Shown here: piece after piece, positions 11,766-45,266 of the stretch | How positions within the stretch are numbered: position 1 is the stretch's first letter | Layout: each line of letters opens with the position of its first letter | Assembly (NCBI GenBank): GCA_964500225.1 | Contig: CAZCOA010000002.1 | Coordinates: 37,022 to 101,021 of the forward strand | Origin: an uncultured Anaerolineaceae bacterium | Lineage (GTDB): Bacteria > Planctomycetota > Phycisphaerae > FEN-1346 > JAACEH01 | Direction: 5' to 3' | DNA: 64,000 bases | Translations under genes and position numbers: made by a program | The notes under the pieces: model-generated | Databases searched by the model: none | Seen by the model: the letters and a program-made list of their open reading frames with translations, nothing else | What the model was told of the DNA's origin: nothing

Positions 11766-11794
11766 TTGACAGTGGGTATTCCTTGAAATATACT
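11766..11794 (+). promoter_or_regulatory. consensus sigma70-type promoter at head of nusA leader
   Basis: TTGACA(11766-11771)-N17-TATACT(11789-11794). Anchored against ORF 11729 codon positions. Confidence 0.55.
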
Positions 11795-12227
11795 GCCGTT
11801 TCGGCTTGGTGGACGCCAACCTCAGCGAGAGGCCGTGCGTTCATGGCGCATGTGCTGCTGGACGGCGTCAGGAAGGGCCACACGGGCGACGTGGCGGCCA
11901 TGGCGGTCGCAGGGGGCGTTTGCCGGGTCGGGTAACGTGTTGCCGCTGGTGGTCCGCGTGGCGAAACCTCTGGGTGGCGAGCAGATTGTTCACTTGGAAC
12001 GGATCGGCGCGGATCGGCCGCAGCAGTCGGTTGCGAAACCGGGCAGCCACGCCAGTAGTGGGCGTGGAACAGTGTTTCGATGCGTCCCTGAACATGGAGA
12101 AAGTACACGTGTTTGACAGCGAAAGCCGGCAGGACGTGTCCTTGGAGCAGGAACATGTAGCGAGCGAGCGGTAGAACCTCGGCGCCACGGGTCCGTGACG
12201 TCCGCTCGCCGATTGGCGTGGCCCGAA

Positions 12228-31100: not shown

Positions 31101-31122
31101 AATTGTGACCGCCGTCACAATT
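31101..31122. promoter_or_regulatory. perfect CRP/FNR-type palindrome in gcvT 5'UTR
   Basis: AATTGTGACCGCCGTCACAATT, i.e. TGTGA-N6-TCACA with 9-bp perfect arms. Lies at about +9 to +30 relative to the predicted gcvT transcription start. Confidence 0.5.
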
Positions 31123-31137
31123 TCAGTAGGAGGCCGC

Positions 31138-31166
31138 AGTATAGGGCCGACCCGACGCGGATGCAA
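31138..31166 (-). promoter_or_regulatory. sigma70-type promoter of the gcv operon
   Basis: Minus-strand TTGCAT(31166-31161)-N17-TATACT(31143-31138). About 70-nt 5'UTR to gcvT ATG 31051. Confidence 0.5.
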
Positions 31167-39790: not shown

Positions 39791-39874
39791 AGGTTCCTCG
39801 CTCGTCCGCCCCGGCGACCATAGTGTGGGTCCCCGGACCCACACGGATGCGGGGCGCCACGGCGTGTTTGCGAC

Positions 39875-39903
39875 AGTATAGACCGGCCGAATCGGTTTGA
39901 CAA
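39875..39903 (-). promoter_or_regulatory. hemC promoter (minus strand)
   Basis: Minus-strand TTGTCA(39903-39898)-N17-TATACT(39880-39875). Confidence 0.45.
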
Positions 39904-39925: not shown

Positions 39926-40069
39926 CGCCGCCGCAGGGGCCGGACGCCGGAACCGGGGCGACGAGAATCCGTGCAACGGCCGCTGTGGGGCGATGACAAC
40001 GCCTGAATTTCCGGGTACACTGTGGCGGCGCAGGTAGTGATTGGACAATCATCGAAGGAGGAGGACGCC

Positions 40070-40249
40070 ATGGCAGCGCTCGCCCAGTGTTCTTGCACAC
40101 GGATCCTCGAAAGCATCGACCCGATCACGATCATCCTGCTGTTACAGGTGCTCGGGCTCATCTACGTGGCGTTCGCCTTCCGGCGCATCGCCCGGAACCA
40201 GACGGAGTTGGCGCAGTATCTGAAGGACAGATTGGACAAACAGAAATGA
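40070..40249 (+). CDS. 59-aa single-TM small protein
   Basis: ATG 40070 preceded by AAGGAGGAGGA. MAALAQCSCTRILESIDPITIILLLQVLGLIYVAFAFRRIARNQTELAQYLKDRLDKQK has one hydrophobic helix plus a basic/amphipathic tail. Confidence 0.4.
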   Translation: MAALAQCSCTRILESIDPITIILLLQVLGLIYVAFAFRRIARNQTELAQYLKDRLDKQK

Positions 40250-40331: not shown

Positions 40332-41600
40332 ATGTTGGATCTCAACGTGATCCGCAGTAACCCTGAGCAGGTGGCCGCGGGCTTGGGGCGTCGCGGCGGC
40401 GGGTACAGCATCGATGCGATTCTGACGATTGACGAGAAGCGTCGCGCGCTGATCACCGAGAGCGACGAGCTGCGCAACCGGCGCAACGTCGTCTCGAAGG
40501 AAGTCGGGAGGCTGAAGGCCGCAGGCGGCGACGCCACGGCACAAATGGCCGAGAGCAAGGCCATCGGCGAACGGATCAAGCAGATCGAGGGCGAGCTGCG
40601 CGACCTGGACGAGTCGCTGCGGCAAGCGCTGCTGATGCTGCCGAACGTGCCGGCCGAGGACGTGCCCGACGGCGCGGGGGCCGAGGACAACCGGATTGTC
40701 AAGACCGTCGGCGAAAAGCCGCGGTTCGATTTCCAGCCGCTGCCGCACTGGGAGCTCGGCGAGAAACTGGGCGTGTTGGACATGGCTCGCGCGGCGAAGA
40801 TTGCCGGCAGCGGATTTCCGCTGTTCGTGGGCCAGGGGGCACGTCTGGTGCGCGCGCTGCTGACATGGATGCTCGACGTGCAGACCGGACAAAACGGATA
40901 TACGGAGGTCTGGCCTCCCGCCCTGGTGAATGCCAAGACGATGACCGGGACGGGCCAGTTGCCGAAGTTCGAGGAGGAGTTGTATCGACTGCGCGACGAC
41001 GAGCTGTACCTGATTCCGACGGCCGAGGTGCCGGTGACGAACCTCTATCAGGACGAAATCCTGGCCGAGGCGGATCTGCCGATGCTGCGGACGGCGTACA
41101 CGCCGTGCTTCCGTCGCGAGGCCGGCGCCGCCGGTCGCGACACGCGCGGCATGATCCGCGTGCACCAGTTCGACAAGGTCGAGATGGTCAAGTTCACCAC
41201 GCCCGAGACGAGCCCGGCCGAGCACGAGTCGCTGACGGCCAACGCCGAAGGGCTGATCGAGCAACTCGGCCTGCCCTACCGCCGCGTGCTGCTGTGCGCC
41301 GGCGACATGGGCTTCTCGGCCCGCAAATGCTTCGACCTGGAGGTCTATGCCGCCGGGTGCGATCGCTGGTTGGAGGTGTCGAGTTGCTCGAACTTCGGCG
41401 ATTTCCAGGCCCGCCGGGCCAACATCCGTTACCGTGATGCCAAAGGCAAGGTCCGCTTCGTTCACACCCTGAACGGCAGCGGACTGGCGCTGCCGCGCAT
41501 CTTCATCGCCATCCTGGAGAACTTCCAGCAGGCCGATGGCCGCGTGCGCGTGCCCGAGGTGCTGCGACCCTACATGAGCGGCACGGAATTCATCGGGTGA
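40332..41600 (+). CDS. serS: serine--tRNA ligase
   Basis: MLDLNVIRSNPEQV... N-terminal coiled coil and class II aaRS motifs. 422 aa. Confidence 0.95.
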   Translation: MLDLNVIRSNPEQVAAGLGRRGGGYSIDAILTIDEKRRALITESDELRNRRNVVSKEVGRLKAAGGDATAQMAESKAIGERIKQIEGELRDLDESLRQALLMLPNVPAEDVPDGAGAEDNRIVKTVGEKPRFDFQPLPHWELGEKLGVLDMARAAKIAGSGFPLFVGQGARLVRALLTWMLDVQTGQNGYTEVWPPALVNAKTMTGTGQLPKFEEELYRLRDDELYLIPTAEVPVTNLYQDEILAEADLPMLRTAYTPCFRREAGAAGRDTRGMIRVHQFDKVEMVKFTTPETSPAEHESLTANAEGLIEQLGLPYRRVLLCAGDMGFSARKCFDLEVYAAGCDRWLEVSSCSNFGDFQARRANIRYRDAKGKVRFVHTLNGSGLALPRIFIAILENFQQADGRVRVPEVLRPYMSGTEFIG

Positions 41601-41613
41601 GAAGTCCCGGGAG

Positions 41614-41823
41614 TCATAGCCATTCGCTGAGGCCGTAGAGAGTAATCGCCAGCAGGATCATGAACCCTGTGACGCTGACAAAGAAATGGAGAACCCCCCA
41701 GGCGATGTCTCGCGGCTTGTCATATTGGGTGGTCTTATAGACGATGCCCACGACAATCGCCAGAGGATAGTAGTACCACAAGGGGTTCGAGGCTGCAAAG
41801 ATCTTCGCGAGCAGGTCGATCAT
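41614..41823 (-). CDS. 69-aa two-TM small membrane protein (last gene of lipoprotein cassette)
   Basis: MIDLLAKIFAASNPLWYYYPLAIVVGIVYKTTQYDKPRDIAWGVLHFFVSVTGFMILLAITLYGLSEWL. Start ATG overlaps the upstream gene's TGA stop (ATGA). Confidence 0.4.
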   Translation of the reverse strand: MIDLLAKIFAASNPLWYYYPLAIVVGIVYKTTQYDKPRDIAWGVLHFFVSVTGFMILLAITLYGLSEWL

Positions 41824-42236
41824 GCCGGGCCCTCCTTGCGTGTCGTGGGCCGCTCGATGTTGTTGGCCACCATGTACGAGTCCAGAATCACCAGCAGATT
41901 CAGCAGTCCCGCCACCAGGGTATAGAGAACGCCCATCTCGAAGGCCACCTTGACGTGGTTCGGCGGTCCATACCGAGCGACCATCTTGTCGCTGATGTGG
42001 TCGGCGGCATAGGCCAACGGTCCGGTCAGCACCTGGGCATAGAAGAGCAGGTCGCCGTTGTTTACGATGCGCCACTGACCGAGGCCCCAGCCGGTCACGA
42101 ACAGGCCAACCACGCAGGTGAAGAAGACCACGGCTTTGATGCGGCGGTTCAGGTACCAGTGTCCCAGCCCCGGCAGGACCAGGGCGAGCACGACGGCGGC
42201 GACCCACGATTTACGGTGTGCGGCCTTCTGGCTCAT
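41820..42236 (-). CDS. 138-aa polytopic membrane protein
   Basis: Internal ATG (MSQKAAHRKSWVAAVVLALVLPGLGHWYLNRRIKAVVFF...), three predicted TM helices. Start abuts/overlaps the upstream lipoprotein stop. Confidence 0.45.
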   Translation of the reverse strand: MSQKAAHRKSWVAAVVLALVLPGLGHWYLNRRIKAVVFFTCVVGLFVTGWGLGQWRIVNNGDLLFYAQVLTGPLAYAADHISDKMVARYGPPNHVKVAFEMGVLYTLVAGLLNLLVILDSYMVANNIERPTTRKEGPA

Positions 42237-43075
42237 GGCTTGGGGGAATCTCCTTGATCGGCGGACGGTACGATGGCTCCACCGGCGGCCTCCTCGCCGG
42301 CCCTTAGTCGCGAGGCGTCCAGCACAATCGGTGCAACGAATCGTTTGACGAACCCCGAGCTGGACGCGCCCAGGTGGTCGCCCATGTGGCCGAAGACCAC
42401 GTGCGTCGCCTTCCATGACACCTCGACCAGTTTCTCCTGGTACAGTGCCCGGACCTCCTGCGATGCGCCCGGCGGAAGGCTGAATCCGTAGAGCCCGGCG
42501 GCCACGCCCGATCCGCGGTCCACCGTGCCGGCCAGCCCGACGCCGACGCCCAGAACGCCCACGTCGGCGACACTTGAGAAGTTGGTGATTTCGTTGCGCA
42601 CGTGTTTCATGGCAGGAGCCAGGTTGTAGGTATTCGAGAGACTCGACGCCATCAGCACCAGGCCGTCCACCTTGACGCCGGCCGGCAACTGCTCCGTAGC
42701 GAAGACCACGATCCCCGTCCCGGCGCTGATACCAATCAGGTGGACGGGTTTGTCGGGGTGCTCGGCGATGTAGCGAGCGATGCGCTCGCTCGATTGCCGC
42801 GCGACGCTGCGATTGCGATCCAGGTTCGTCTGGTCCTCCAGCACGTTGTGCCCAGCGGTCCAGTCCACGATCTCGATGGCGTGGTCCACGCCGCCCTCGT
42901 GCAGGCCGCGACGAATCTGGATCGGAGCTCGCGTGATGCCCCCTGCCCCGTCGAACACCAGGATCAGTCCGTTGCGGTACCGTTCAGGGGCTGTGTAGTT
43001 CGGCTCCGCACAGCCGGCGAGGCCCAGGCAGGTCACCGTAAGCACCGCGACACACGTCCACGCACGCCTCGTCAT
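42233..43075 (-). CDS. lipoprotein, lipase-like alpha/beta hydrolase (paralogue B)
   Basis: Lipobox LGLAGC. LILVFDGAGG, GLHEGGVDHAIEIVDW, nucleophile elbow HLIGISAGTG, NLAPAMKHVR. ATGA overlap with the upstream paralogue's stop. Confidence 0.55.
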   Translation of the reverse strand: MTRRAWTCVAVLTVTCLGLAGCAEPNYTAPERYRNGLILVFDGAGGITRAPIQIRRGLHEGGVDHAIEIVDWTAGHNVLEDQTNLDRNRSVARQSSERIARYIAEHPDKPVHLIGISAGTGIVVFATEQLPAGVKVDGLVLMASSLSNTYNLAPAMKHVRNEITNFSSVADVGVLGVGVGLAGTVDRGSGVAAGLYGFSLPPGASQEVRALYQEKLVEVSWKATHVVFGHMGDHLGASSSGFVKRFVAPIVLDASRLRAGEEAAGGAIVPSADQGDSPKP

Positions 43076-43944
43076 GGACTCCCTCCTTCAGGCGTCGCGC
43101 CGCCAGTCGCGACGTTCGTCGCGCCGTCGTTCGAGGCCGCAGGCGCGGCCCCATCGTGTTTCTCGCCGCCTGGCACGATCGGCCGGAAGGCTTCGTGCGC
43201 CTGACCGGTGCGCATGATCGGCGCCAGGAACTCGCGGGCAAAACTCGACGTGGACCAGCCCATGTGGCCGCCCAAGTGCCCTTTCTTGAGGAACTCGCCG
43301 CCCCAGGCCGCTTGACGTACCTTGGCGTATTGGGCCCGGTCGGCATCGGACAAATGTTCGGGGATCTTAAACCCCATCAGCCCCGCGCCGACGGTGTGTT
43401 TGCCGTCCATCGTCGTGAACACCGACGTGCCCAGCCCCATGAGCGGCACGTCTCCGGGCGAATGCGTGACGTAGCAACAGTGGCGCACGTGCCGCAGTGC
43501 CGGCGCCAGGTTGTACTCCGGCGAAAGGGCCGGGGCGAGCAGAAAGGCGTTGTCCACCTGGAATCCCTCGGGCATCTGTTCCAGAGCAAAGACGACCATA
43601 CCCCCGCCGCCGCTGTGGCCCACAAGATGAATGGGACGATCCGGATAGAACTTGCGGTAGTTGGTCACAAGCCGGACCATCTCGGCGGCGCGCCGCATGT
43701 TGCCGTCGTGGTCCCAGAGGTCGGCGACGAACATCCCGGCCGGCCCATGGCCCCAGTGAAAGATGTATATGGCCGCCTTCACCCCGCCTTCGTCCAGCCC
43801 CGTGCGGAGCCACCGCGGACCGACGTTGTAGCCGCCGACGCCGTCGAGACTCACCACGAGGCCCTTATCGAGCCGCTCGGGACTCAGATAATCGACCTTC
43901 TTGGCGCAGCCGGCGCAGAGCATCAGAGAGAGACTGAACGCCAT
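43072..43944 (-). CDS. lipoprotein, lipase-like alpha/beta hydrolase (paralogue A)
   Basis: Internal ATG 43944 (MAFSLSLMLCAGCAKK lipobox; the listed ORF has a 261-aa Arg-rich artefactual extension). VVSLDGVGG, GLDEGGVKAAIYIFHW, HLVGHSGGGG, NLAPALRHVR. Confidence 0.55.
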   Translation of the reverse strand: MAFSLSLMLCAGCAKKVDYLSPERLDKGLVVSLDGVGGYNVGPRWLRTGLDEGGVKAAIYIFHWGHGPAGMFVADLWDHDGNMRRAAEMVRLVTNYRKFYPDRPIHLVGHSGGGGMVVFALEQMPEGFQVDNAFLLAPALSPEYNLAPALRHVRHCCYVTHSPGDVPLMGLGTSVFTTMDGKHTVGAGLMGFKIPEHLSDADRAQYAKVRQAAWGGEFLKKGHLGGHMGWSTSSFAREFLAPIMRTGQAHEAFRPIVPGGEKHDGAAPAASNDGATNVATGGATPEGGSP

Positions 43945-44042
43945 TGCCAGGATGCCGTAAGTCACGTTCAAAGCCGGTTTCCTCGCCGCACGGCCGAGCG
44001 TGCCGCCGACAGACCGCGGCAACACGCGAGCAAACGCCCGGC

Positions 44043-44071
44043 AGTATAGTCCGCCGGCCCATCCGGGGCAA
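44043..44071 (-). promoter_or_regulatory. promoter of the lipoprotein-hydrolase cassette
   Basis: Minus-strand TTGCCC(44071-44066)-N17-TATACT(44048-44043). A GTCACAAT half-site (44083-44076) sits just upstream of the -35. Confidence 0.4.
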
Positions 44072-44096
44072 CCGGATTGTGACGTCGCCGGCGGCA

Positions 44097-45266
44097 TCAG
44101 ACCTGGTCGCGGACCTTCAGGAACTCGTCGATCATGGCCATGAAGTTGTCGTACGGCGTGCCGACGGCCACGCTGTGGCTCGTGCCGAAAATGAAACCGC
44201 TGCCCGGCGCGCCGACGCGCACCGCCCGGCGTACGGCAGTCCGGACCTCGTCGGTCGTGCCGCTCTGGAGCACCTCCAACGGCATGCCGCCCCAGAGGCA
44301 GAGCCGGTCGCCGTGGCTCGCCTTGAGCTGGTCGAGATGCACCCCCGCCGTGGCCTGGAGGCTCTGGTAGCAATCGAATCCGGCGGCGACGAAGTCGTCC
44401 AGCAGAGGCAGATTGTTGCCGCAGGCGTGCTTCAGGACGAACTGCCCACGGGCGTGCAGACATTCGGTCCGTTCCTTGTACGCCGGGAAGCAGAACTCGT
44501 GCCACATGGCCGGTGAGATCATCGGTCCGGCCTTGTAGGCAAAGTCGGCCCCCCAGAGGGTGCCGTCCTGCCCGTCGCGGACCGCCCAGGCGTCGGCGGC
44601 GTTGGCGTCGCGCGTGGCGCGGGCGATGGCCGCGCGGACCACGTCCGGCTGGTCGATGAACATCATCAGGCCGCGCTCCATGCCGCCGACGAGCGTCCAT
44701 CCGGCTTCCCCGCCGCTCGGCCCACAAAGAAACCGCTGGCCGCGAAACTCTTCGATCAGGGCGTCCACGACCTCGTACACGCTGTCGTCCGGACGAGTTG
44801 GCGGCGGCGCGTCGTCGAACTGGGCCGCCGTGAACACCGCGTTACGAGCCACGGGATCGTCCACGCATGTGATGTCGTTGGTCGTGGGCGAATACTTGTA
44901 CACGCGGCCCTGGCGGTCCTGCCAGGTATCGGGTGCAATCTTTTGGGGCGGGTCGGGCTCATAGTCCCGCGGCGGCAGAAGCCCTCCGGCCATGGCCGCC
45001 ACGTTCAGGATGTCGAAACAGTCCATGCGGCGGTAGAATTCGATGAAGTCCTCGCGCCAGCTCTGGGCCACTTCGTCGCGACGGCCTTCCCAAAGGGCAA
45101 GGGTCGTTCCGGCCTTGTTCCGCAGCAATGTTTCGTGCCCCAGCACGGCGGCCACCGTGTCGTAGTCCACGGCAAATTCACCGTAGGGAATACGGTCCAC
45201 CGGCTCGTGCCTCAGGGCGGCGATGATACGTTGGCGACTGTTCACGAAGTGTTCCTTGCTTTGCAT
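44097..45266 (-). CDS. uroporphyrinogen decarboxylase (URO-D)-like family protein
   Basis: Internal ATG 45266 (MQSKEHFVNSRQRIIAALRHEPVDRIPYGEF...), the standard opening of URO-D/MtaA-like TIM-barrel proteins. Confidence 0.65.
   Translation of the reverse strand: MQSKEHFVNSRQRIIAALRHEPVDRIPYGEFAVDYDTVAAVLGHETLLRNKAGTTLALWEGRRDEVAQSWREDFIEFYRRMDCFDILNVAAMAGGLLPPRDYEPDPPQKIAPDTWQDRQGRVYKYSPTTNDITCVDDPVARNAVFTAAQFDDAPPPTRPDDSVYEVVDALIEEFRGQRFLCGPSGGEAGWTLVGGMERGLMMFIDQPDVVRAAIARATRDANAADAWAVRDGQDGTLWGADFAYKAGPMISPAMWHEFCFPAYKERTECLHARGQFVLKHACGNNLPLLDDFVAAGFDCYQSLQATAGVHLDQLKASHGDRLCLWGGMPLEVLQSGTTDEVRTAVRRAVRVGAPGSGFIFGTSHSVAVGTPYDNFMAMIDEFLKVRDQV

Follow-up and report, generated by a model that had tools for sequence, protein, structure and literature searches.

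What do two lipase-like lipoproteins and two very small membrane proteins have to do with each other? The question is raised by a cluster of genes between 41614 and 43971 in the window, a 64,000-nucleotide stretch of DNA from an uncultured Phycisphaerae bacterium. Four co-directional open reading frames, A to D, follow each other on the minus strand, where the promoter and Shine-Dalgarno sequence described below also lie, with an ATGA stop/start overlap at each of the three junctions. Genes A (43072-43971) and B (42233-43075; 280 residues) encode paralogous lipoproteins of the α/β-hydrolase type, C (41820-42236; 138 residues) an integral membrane protein with a DUF6677 domain, and D (41614-41823; 69 residues) a small membrane protein with a two-helix hairpin; the ATG of B overlaps the stop of A, that of C the stop of B and that of D the stop of C. 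An initial annotation had proposed these genes as a dedicated envelope module, and our check of the reading frames agrees with its coordinates and 4-nt overlaps except at the start of gene A. An Rfam scan of 41400-44300 at E ≤ 0.1 returned no match, so no known riboswitch or leader is present there. Two terminator-like sites (43608-43591 and 41700-41687) were rejected, as they fall within coding sequence and their number is in line with the shuffle expectation of 1.6. None of the four proteins matched a PADLOC defence-system model at E ≤ 0.01.

Upstream of gene A lies a sigma-70-type promoter, TTGCCC-N17-TATACT(G), at 44043-44071, with a predicted transcription start near 44036. It is the one promoter-like site found in the 3.1 kb between 41300 and 44400, where 0.3 would be expected, and TTGCC-N17-19-TATACT occurs a single time in the window against an expectation of 0.01. 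The near-consensus promoter first proposed here is further borne out by related genomes: 15 of 17 cassette loci keep TTGCC-N17-TATACT, 87-118 nt upstream of gene A. The form TTG-N20-TATACTG is found four times in the window, where 0.03 would be expected, an enrichment that marks it as the general promoter type of the organism. The initial annotation had also placed an operator half-site, GTCACAAT, just upstream of the -35 element (44076-44083). The window contains three matches to it where 1.25 are expected, a number reached by 13 of 100 shuffles; moreover, in L093, a relative with 90% identity, the site reads GACACAAT, and 16 other loci lack it. Because the number of matches is not significant and the site is not conserved in relatives, we discarded it as an operator half-site.

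The start of gene A was also revised. A Shine-Dalgarno sequence, GAGGA (43980-43984), lies 8 nt before the codon TTG 43971, and in an alignment of 13 upstream regions the AGG columns hardly vary and the TTG/GTG column that follows AGGA(G) is invariant. A gene caller chose this start for the A-type gene of locus L006, and reading A from this codon brings its lipobox cysteine to residue 22, as in B. Translation therefore most likely begins at TTG 43971, giving a protein of 299 residues, rather than at ATG 43944 (290 residues) as previously called.

A and B align with 38% identity over 273 residues (BLASTP, E 3e-52) and, judged by this similarity, are old paralogues, in agreement with the tandem paralogy already suspected. 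Among the blocks said to be common to the pair, GL(D/H)EGGV and NLAPAxxHVR are present in both, but LDGxGG is exact in A only, B reading FDGAGG; the nucleophile elbows HLVGHSGGGG (A) and HLIGISAGTG (B) are found as described. A supposed divergence in the C-terminal third did not hold, as identity over successive thirds of the fold is 38, 46 and 38%, the last of these containing the catalytic Asp and His. The difference is confined to tails of ~40 residues, and that of A is modelled as disordered from about residue 260, the last ~30 residues having a pLDDT of 52-56 (AF2). Both proteins have a predicted signal sequence and the expected lipobox, LMLCAG-C in A (LCAG-C; Cys22 at 43906-43908) and LGLAG-C in B (LAG-C; Cys22 at 43010-43012), and a lipobox-like motif is found in 34 of 36 A/B orthologues (16 of 18 A-type and 18 of 18 B-type).

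The fold is that of an α/β-hydrolase, with a central β-sheet and a strand-turn-helix elbow, G-x-S-x-G, that carries the nucleophile. The triad acid of A comes after strand 7 and the His after strand 8 (strands at 153-161 and 209-213 in the numbering from ATG 43944, in which Asp165 and His227 are the Asp174 and His236 counted from TTG). Both triads, Ser120 (43612-43614), Asp174 (43450-43452) and His236 (43264-43266) in A and Ser117 (42725-42727), Asp171 (42563-42565) and His234 (42374-42376) in B, are intact in canonical α/β-hydrolase positions (AF2 pLDDT 88). Ser, Asp and His are invariant in 34 sequences of the hydrolase family and retained in A-type and B-type orthologues alike, the latter carrying the triad within a signature of their own, G(I/V)SAGT / VAD(T/V) / GDHLG. 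From their sequences and models, A and B look like active Ser hydrolase lipoproteins.

All matches of A and B to Pfam and NCBIfam models are below threshold, those to NCBIfam being meaningless (E ≥ 0.1, where the cut-offs are 320-650 bits), and no HMM thus places the lipoproteins in a characterised family, in keeping with the initial annotation. Among Pfam models, A, B and their homologues score highest with DUF900 (PF05990; 13.9 bits for A and 15.9 for B, cut-off 20.5) and Hydrolase_4 (PF12146; 23.8 and 20.1 bits, cut-off 27), and precomputed Hydrolase_4 hits exist for some homologues. The distant family member P0292 is the sole relative to reach the DUF900 cut-off (20.7 versus 20.5 bits), and A scores 12.9 bits (E 0.1) with VirJ (PF06057), where the cut-off is 22. 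We know of no function for DUF900; Hydrolase_4, the best Pfam match, includes peptidases, so the substrate of A and B could be a peptide instead of a lipid. At E ≤ 1e-3 a profile built from the hydrolase family picks out 1,961 clusters, which are a discrete set and not the wider superfamily. By such profile searches, this is a family of ~830-1,960 clusters at 50% identity, with no Pfam model of its own and with A and B as orthologous sub-lineages. Its members were found here in Planctomycetota-type MAGs only, and in a domain-fusion search the long ones mostly had Pro/Ala-rich tails, with a single faint CsgG-like match at a C-terminus (19.9 bits, cut-off 20.8).

The nearest solved relatives of A and B are generic lipases and esterases, the best being Bacillus subtilis LipA (PDB 1i6w) both by sequence profile (E 1.4e-4) and by Foldseek (E 1e-5, TM 0.66 on the target). 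With the 'minimal' lipases of the LipA/EstA type (lipase family I.4) they share a compact α/β-hydrolase core without a large lid, the G-x-S-x-G elbow, the Ser-Asp-His triad and, following strand 3, a loop rich in glycine, (V/L)(H/D)G(I/V)GG. However, identity is only ~15%. A and B have ~100 more residues, additional helices between strands 7 and 8, and a tail that is disordered. They have no Lipase_2 Pfam match, and they are diderm lipoproteins encoded by tandem paralogues coupled to membrane proteins, whereas LipA-type enzymes are secreted by Gram-positive bacteria.

A weak match to the family profile (E 1e-3) was also obtained with the PDB chain of AcvB from Agrobacterium, which is reported to be a periplasmic lysyl-phosphatidylglycerol (Lys-PG) hydrolase that is encoded in one operon, and interacts, with the membrane protein LpiA (PMC13197417). 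AcvB working with LpiA is the closest analogy for A and B with C and D, as in both cases an α/β-hydrolase gene shares its operon with a gene for an integral membrane protein. The partner contact and membrane lipid remodelling reported for AcvB/LpiA may have a counterpart in A-D. The sequence relationship to AcvB/VirJ is marginal and under the Pfam threshold, however, and A and B are a pair of lipoproteins, which AcvB is not. In place of LpiA the cassette has a DUF6677 protein and a 69-residue protein, and no MprF/LpiA-type aminoacyl-PG synthase was found in the cassette or its flanks, either in the window or in related loci.

C belongs to DUF6677 (PF20382) with 84.6 bits (cut-off 24.3, E 1e-23, model positions 2-112 of 116). 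Its three strongly hydrophobic segments agree with the three-TM protein first described, giving three hydrophobic helices and an amphipathic region, and it contains an invariant PGLGH (42159-42173) and the motif AGLLNLL (41892-41912). The N-terminal LPGLGHWYLGRR hairpin has a weak match to TM2 (PF05154; E 1e-3, below the cut-off). A lead from the Cap1 pore paper was abandoned, as 'TM2' there means the second transmembrane helix and not the Pfam domain. To our knowledge neither DUF6677 nor the TM2 domain has a known function, and a literature search for DUF6677 found no mention of it. D is small and hydrophobic, as expected of the tiny membrane protein it was taken for, and carries a conserved (I/L)VYKTT loop motif (41728-41742). 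Its homologues form 61 clusters of 61-93 residues, none with a Pfam model, and D follows DUF6677 in 64 of the 73 metagenome DUF6677 loci with room for it downstream. Going by these homologues and neighbourhoods, D is a real, previously unmodelled family, whose genes regularly come after DUF6677 in many lineages. Neighbour clustering around DUF6677 gave D as the sole conserved partner; neither this partner nor a fusion to hydrolase genes appears in the available descriptions of the DUF6677 and TM2 families. A HIT-family protein is encoded near DUF6677 in 11 loci, and in one lineage the DUF6677-D pair comes directly after an LptB-like ATPase.

The gene order of the cassette is conserved in relatives, as a module of the kind first proposed would have it. 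It is intact in 13 of 13 complete species-level loci with at least 48% identity to A, and also in L001, L003/4, L093 and L101, counts that are inflated by shared ancestry since all cassette loci come from one Phycisphaerae-type clade of MAGs. Two flanking contexts were seen, one with URO-D/serS/hemC and the other with unknown large proteins and epimerase/MurJ/alr. The overlap between B and C is 4 nt in 19 of 19 cassette loci while the A-B junction varies (-4, +10, +53, +102), indicating that the B-C junction is the more constrained; between C and D the spacing is -4 or -1 in nearly all. ATGA overlaps, once formed, are hard to lose, and conserved overlaps are therefore no proof of selection for stoichiometry. 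The retention of junctions and promoter across ~50%-diverged genomes puts the cassette far beyond chance, and the four genes are one real, conserved operon of uncultured Planctomycetota.

As to what this operon does, we would put at about one in two the probability that A and B are a pair of periplasmic esterases/lipases, anchored in the membrane and expressed together with an inner-membrane partner, that take part in envelope lipid or acyl remodelling. The genes would be transcribed together from the housekeeping-type promoter (44071-44043) and translated with stop/start coupling. A and B would be catalytically competent Ser-Asp-His hydrolases, lipid-anchored via Cys22 and presumably facing the periplasm, which may act as esterases or lipases at the membrane surface, possibly as a heterodimer. 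A plausible substrate is an acyl-ester bond in an envelope lipid, a glycolipid or an acylated envelope component; the family matches, being sub-threshold, and the structural neighbours, being generic, gave no substrate-specific signal for A and B. C and the ~70-residue D hairpin would form a two-protein inner-membrane unit; the pair is an old self-sufficient module of many lineages, upstream of which a duplicated member of the hydrolase family was fused in one Phycisphaerae-type clade. DUF6677/D, possibly in physical contact with A and B, would act as their membrane partner in docking, substrate presentation or product handling.

The three findings that would have told against the module originally envisaged were not made: the four genes are conserved in order, no HMM puts the lipoproteins in a characterised family, and both small proteins have many homologues. 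The idea that the module is an obligate, dedicated one of four parts nevertheless loses force, since both halves occur independently in other genomes. DUF6677 and D are a self-contained pair in 64 of 73 metagenome loci, a hydrolase is found near DUF6677 in only 2 of 80, and in ~63 other Planctomycetota species the hydrolase stands alone or belongs to operons of quite another kind. Other family members adjoin PAS-GAF-REC proteins or sit in giant-secretin operons (nothing relevant to Planctomycetes secretins or crateriform structures came up in a literature search). The linkage is therefore a clade-specific operon fusion, and it could be one of co-expression only. That the hydrolase pair and the DUF6677/D pair work independently and merely use one promoter in this clade is possible, if on balance unlikely. 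Such independence would suit a DUF6677-D pair that in most loci stands by itself, without a further conserved neighbour, and hydrolases whose relatives live alone or in other company, with the overlapping stop/start junctions persisting by inertia; it sits less well with a cassette that all complete loci of the clade retain whole, down to ~48% identity, and that has moved between two genomic contexts as one unit, and varies at A-B while B-C is invariant. A bolder proposal, which we regard as doubtful, is that DUF6677-D is a widespread and as yet unrecognised two-subunit inner-membrane machine for an envelope lipid or lipid-linked intermediate, and that in this clade it recruited heterodimeric lipoprotein esterases as its dedicated periplasmic catalytic subunits. 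Handling of an envelope lipid by the pair would then explain its position directly after the LptB-like ATPase.

Nutrient scavenging, in which A and B would be outer-surface or released lipases or esterases that act on external lipids or polyesters, with C and D unrelated or aiding export, appears improbable. A housekeeping-type promoter and core-metabolism neighbours (serS, hemC, URO-D-like, MurJ, alr) are unlike a catabolic locus, no transporter, regulator or CAZyme cluster is present, the lipobox argues for membrane anchoring of A and B, and their family is small and discrete (the 1,961 clusters at E ≤ 1e-3). We give very little credence to the idea that B lacks catalysis and serves as a regulatory or scaffold subunit, or that the ORFs of C and D are spurious products of a high-GC frame. 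The His before the nucleophile has been lost in B (GISAG, against GHSGG in A), which also evolves somewhat faster (B-B identity 40-48% versus A-A 47-54% for the same species pairs), but Ser, Asp and His are kept in the B orthologues examined. The spurious-frame part, a doubt already raised by the initial annotation, is refuted by the DUF6677 match of C (E 1e-23) together with the 61 homologue clusters and conserved motif of D.

Little is understood of Planctomycetota envelopes, and nearly every protein of the cassette is annotated merely as 'alpha/beta hydrolase' or 'hypothetical protein'. The fusion of hydrolases to DUF6677/D is the sole contextual clue so far to the role of DUF6677. A functional link would point to acyl-ester remodelling in the periplasm, coupled to a tiny membrane complex. 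Failing such a link, the locus would still be a clean case of operon fusion, and its promoter, footprinted phylogenetically, would help in modelling the promoters of uncultured Phycisphaerae. Should DUF6677-D prove to be a two-subunit machine with recruited esterases, it would constitute a new kind of envelope-lipid remodelling complex, and would provide a first function for DUF6677/TM2-like proteins and a tractable entry point to them.

The cassette consists of four consecutive open reading frames on the minus strand, A (first read as 43944 to 43072), B (43075 to 42233), C (42236 to 41820) and D (41823 to 41614), and the ATGA stop/start overlap that the initial annotation described at each junction within 41614-44083 is indeed present, with a GGAG-type Shine-Dalgarno motif inside the 3' end of each preceding gene. 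Upstream, a co-directional URO-D-like gene ends at 44097; downstream lies serS (40332-41600, plus strand), convergent with the cassette. The start of A, which had been placed at 43944, had to be moved. When upstream regions from 13 genomes were aligned, a TTG/GTG start was invariant and the AGG of the preceding Shine-Dalgarno motif nearly so; these correspond in the window to a TTG at 43971 and a Shine-Dalgarno sequence at 43984-43980, both on the minus strand. Because this TTG matches the conserved start, A is most likely 299 aa long. With this start the lipobox Cys becomes residue 22 in A, as in B, and the gene call for A in L006 (L numbers denote loci in other genomes or metagenomes) is likewise 299 aa.

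The proposed sigma-70-like site upstream of A, TTGCCC-N17-TATACT at 44071 to 44043, is the sole one in 3.1 kb, against 0.3 ± 0.6 expected from shuffles. In the 13-genome alignment the -35 region (-35 at 44071-44066, minus strand) is conserved as GAAAT(G/T)C(A/G)TTGCC and the -10, TATACT (44048-44043, minus strand), is invariant; the motif lies 87-118 nt 5' of gene A in 15 of 17 loci, even though protein identity is only about 50%. The pattern TTG-N20-TATACTG occurs four times in the window, at 11766-11795 on the plus strand and at 31137-31166, 39874-39903 and 44042-44071 on the minus strand, one copy being upstream of hemC. Only 0.03 would be expected, and the pattern therefore looks like the ordinary promoter type of this organism, with a -10 of TATACT(G). 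The copy at 39874-39903 precedes the probable true start of hemC by about 85 nt and falls within an over-long 398-aa ORF call. The GTCACAAT half-site reported beside the cassette promoter, at 44076-44083, did not hold up: its three copies in the window are a chance number (13 of 100 shuffles reach three), and L093, a relative at 90% identity, has a mutated version of it, while 16 other loci lack it altogether. Elsewhere in the window a perfect palindrome, ATTGTGAC-CGCC-GTCACAAT, is found at 31102-31121, with none expected by chance; it sits in an operator-like position, some 16 nt downstream from the -10 element of the minus-strand promoter at 31137-31166.

When one genome per GTDB species was scanned with the hydrolase alignment, 230 relatives were confirmed; the best 80 nearly all come from MAGs titled Planctomycetota, Phycisphaerae or Planctomycetales. 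The order A-B-DUF6677-D, C being the DUF6677 protein, was found by HMM annotation in 13 of 13 complete loci (L014-L025 and L027; 47-57% identity to A), so the gene order is conserved, a point that the initial annotation had set as a check; in L013 and L028 the contig stops after B. Further copies of the cassette occur in L001/L002, L003/L004 (with an extra paralogue), L093 and L101. The B>C junction is -4 in 19 of 19 loci and almost every C>D junction is -4 or -1, with A>B looser (-4, +10, +53, +102). In the lineage of the window the cassette is flanked by the URO-D-like gene, serS and hemC; another sub-clade has two large proteins of unknown kind on one side of it and an epimerase, MurJ and alr on the other. 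These two different contexts indicate that the four genes travel as a unit. The cassette is a single conserved, promoter-equipped and translationally coupled operon. In all 63 loci at 44% identity or less there is a single hydrolase and no DUF6677 gene within 6 kb.

A minority of the best 80 records are titled 'uncultured Anaerolineales' (L013, L018-L021, L024, L026, L029) and one 'Deltaproteobacteria' (L077). Most of the former hold the full cassette and the family otherwise occurs only in Planctomycetota-titled records; we suspect that these titles reflect mis-binning or mislabelling. Between serS and hemC, a 75-aa ORF with one hydrophobic helix (40022-40249, plus strand) may be a real small membrane protein; L006 has it as a gene call too (75 aa), and L007 (59 aa) and L001 (68 aa) have small genes in that position.

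A and B are paralogous, as first proposed, with 38% identity over 273 aligned residues (E 3e-52). The suggested divergence of the C-terminal third was not seen; identity is 38, 46 and 38% in successive thirds of the fold and the differences are confined to tails of about 40 residues, the last 30 or so of A being modelled as disordered (pLDDT 52-56). In the genomes that bear the cassette, gene one carries the A signature, GHSGG(A/G), ADVG and GGHMG, and gene two the B signature, G(I/V)SAGT, VAD(T/V) and GDHLG, and the two are orthologous lineages; a pair of seeming exchanges of this order came from the sorting of the ORFs. Ser, Asp and His are kept in those A-type and B-type orthologues that were examined. 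Their assignment as lipoproteins is upheld by a lipobox-like motif ending in Cys in 18 of 18 B and 16 of 18 A orthologues, the two exceptions being a variant box (PAGC) and a third-class paralogue. This third class (P0095, P0102, P0105 and P0107 among the family proteins) lacks lipobox and signal peptide and is marked by a conserved F(I/V)PxDPV motif at the N-terminus. Some genomes carry it upstream of the cassette; in L027 it takes the place of A as first hydrolase gene, and by HMM annotation L026 and L029 each have a solitary copy; its sites also include L003/L004:6001-6807 and L016:2502-3242.

Ser111, Asp165 and His227 (counted from the ATG at 43944; the TTG start adds 9) are invariant in a 34-sequence alignment. 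The AlphaFold2 model of A built from this alignment is confident (pLDDT 88, pTM 0.84) and predicts a canonical alpha/beta-hydrolase arrangement, with Ser in a nucleophile elbow between strand and helix, Asp after the next-to-last core strand and His after the last. Bacillus LipA minimal lipases rank first in both Foldseek (E 1e-5) and a PDB-sequence profile search (E 1.4e-4), followed by monoacylglycerol lipases and AcvB (E 6e-4 and 1e-3), so that the neighbours are generic. Every Pfam/NCBIfam match falls below its curated threshold (best Pfam scores: Hydrolase_4, 23.8 bits against 27; DUF900, 15.9 against 20.5), which leaves A and B without assignment to a characterised family. Among 1.84 billion cluster representatives, a family-profile search gave 827 clusters at E ≤ 1e-30 and no more than 1,961 at E ≤ 1e-3, which marks a discrete family that does not grade into the general superfamily. 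The fold is a very well known one, within which A and B form a new sub-family that no model covers. In P0230, a member of 449 aa, the C-terminal extension gives a faint CsgG-like match (19.9 bits, cut-off 20.8); other long members mostly have just Pro/Ala-rich disordered tails.

No Pfam family covers D, but its homologues form 61 clusters (61-93 aa), each independently called 'hypothetical protein', and share a conserved PL...(I/L)VYKTT motif; spurious GC-frame ORFs can be ruled out for both C and D. Scanning metagenomes with DUF6677 gave more than 459 relatives, and 80 loci were kept. Hydrolases are present in only two of these 80: L101 and L093, the latter related to the window at strain level. 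Of the 73 with 300 nt or more of downstream sequence, 64 have a D-like small hydrophobic ORF immediately after DUF6677, where an overlap of -4 or -1 is often possible, and around the 80 no other conserved neighbour was found. DUF6677 and D also occur without hydrolases in L009-L012. In one lineage, represented by L011:5264-6689 and L012:4206-5631, 2 nt separate the DUF6677 gene from the end of a preceding 244-aa LptB-like ABC ATPase (ABC_tran with a BCA_ABC_TP_C tail), and DUF6677 is again followed by a small 61-aa ORF; the arrangement may point to a connection with the transport of envelope lipids.

Solitary hydrolases occupy at least two other contexts. In about 22 species (L038, L039, L044, L046, L047, L051-L053, L055, L057, L059, L060, L062 and others) a PAS-GAF-receiver protein lies directly 3'; this partner is about 570 aa long, and L005 has GAF-SpoIIE instead. 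In about 12 Planctomycetota species (L005:1-6807; L031-L035, L042, L048-L050, L058, L061, L068) the hydrolase closes a tightly packed operon that encodes before it, in this order, a giant secretin, a 216-aa lipoprotein and a 167-aa multi-TM protein with no Pfam match. The secretin reaches 4,784 aa, with many Secretin_N repeats. Each half of the cassette is thus autonomous outside it. The main rival reading, in which a common promoter is all that joins the two halves, is a possible though less probable account of the operon.

By sequence and model, the operon encodes two lipoprotein alpha/beta-hydrolases predicted to be catalytically intact, together with the DUF6677/D membrane pair. We propose that A and B face the periplasm and would cleave an acyl ester in an envelope lipid or acylated component, with the membrane pair as their partner; they may form a heterodimer, given that the two paralogues are kept throughout with their triads intact. 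Secreted nutrient lipases fit less well and seem improbable; pseudoenzymes or spurious ORFs are very improbable given the triads kept in both paralogues and the homologues of D. The nearest functional precedent for a hydrolase and membrane-protein operon is AcvB/LpiA: PMC13197417 describes AcvB as a periplasmic alpha/beta-hydrolase encoded in the same operon as the membrane protein LpiA, which it binds, and turning over Lys-PG. The cassette is not itself an AcvB/LpiA system, as its VirJ score does not reach the threshold and LpiA/MprF is missing. Neither the pairing of DUF6677 with D nor its joining to hydrolases appears in the literature searched, and the cassette provides a first contextual handle on DUF6677 proteins.
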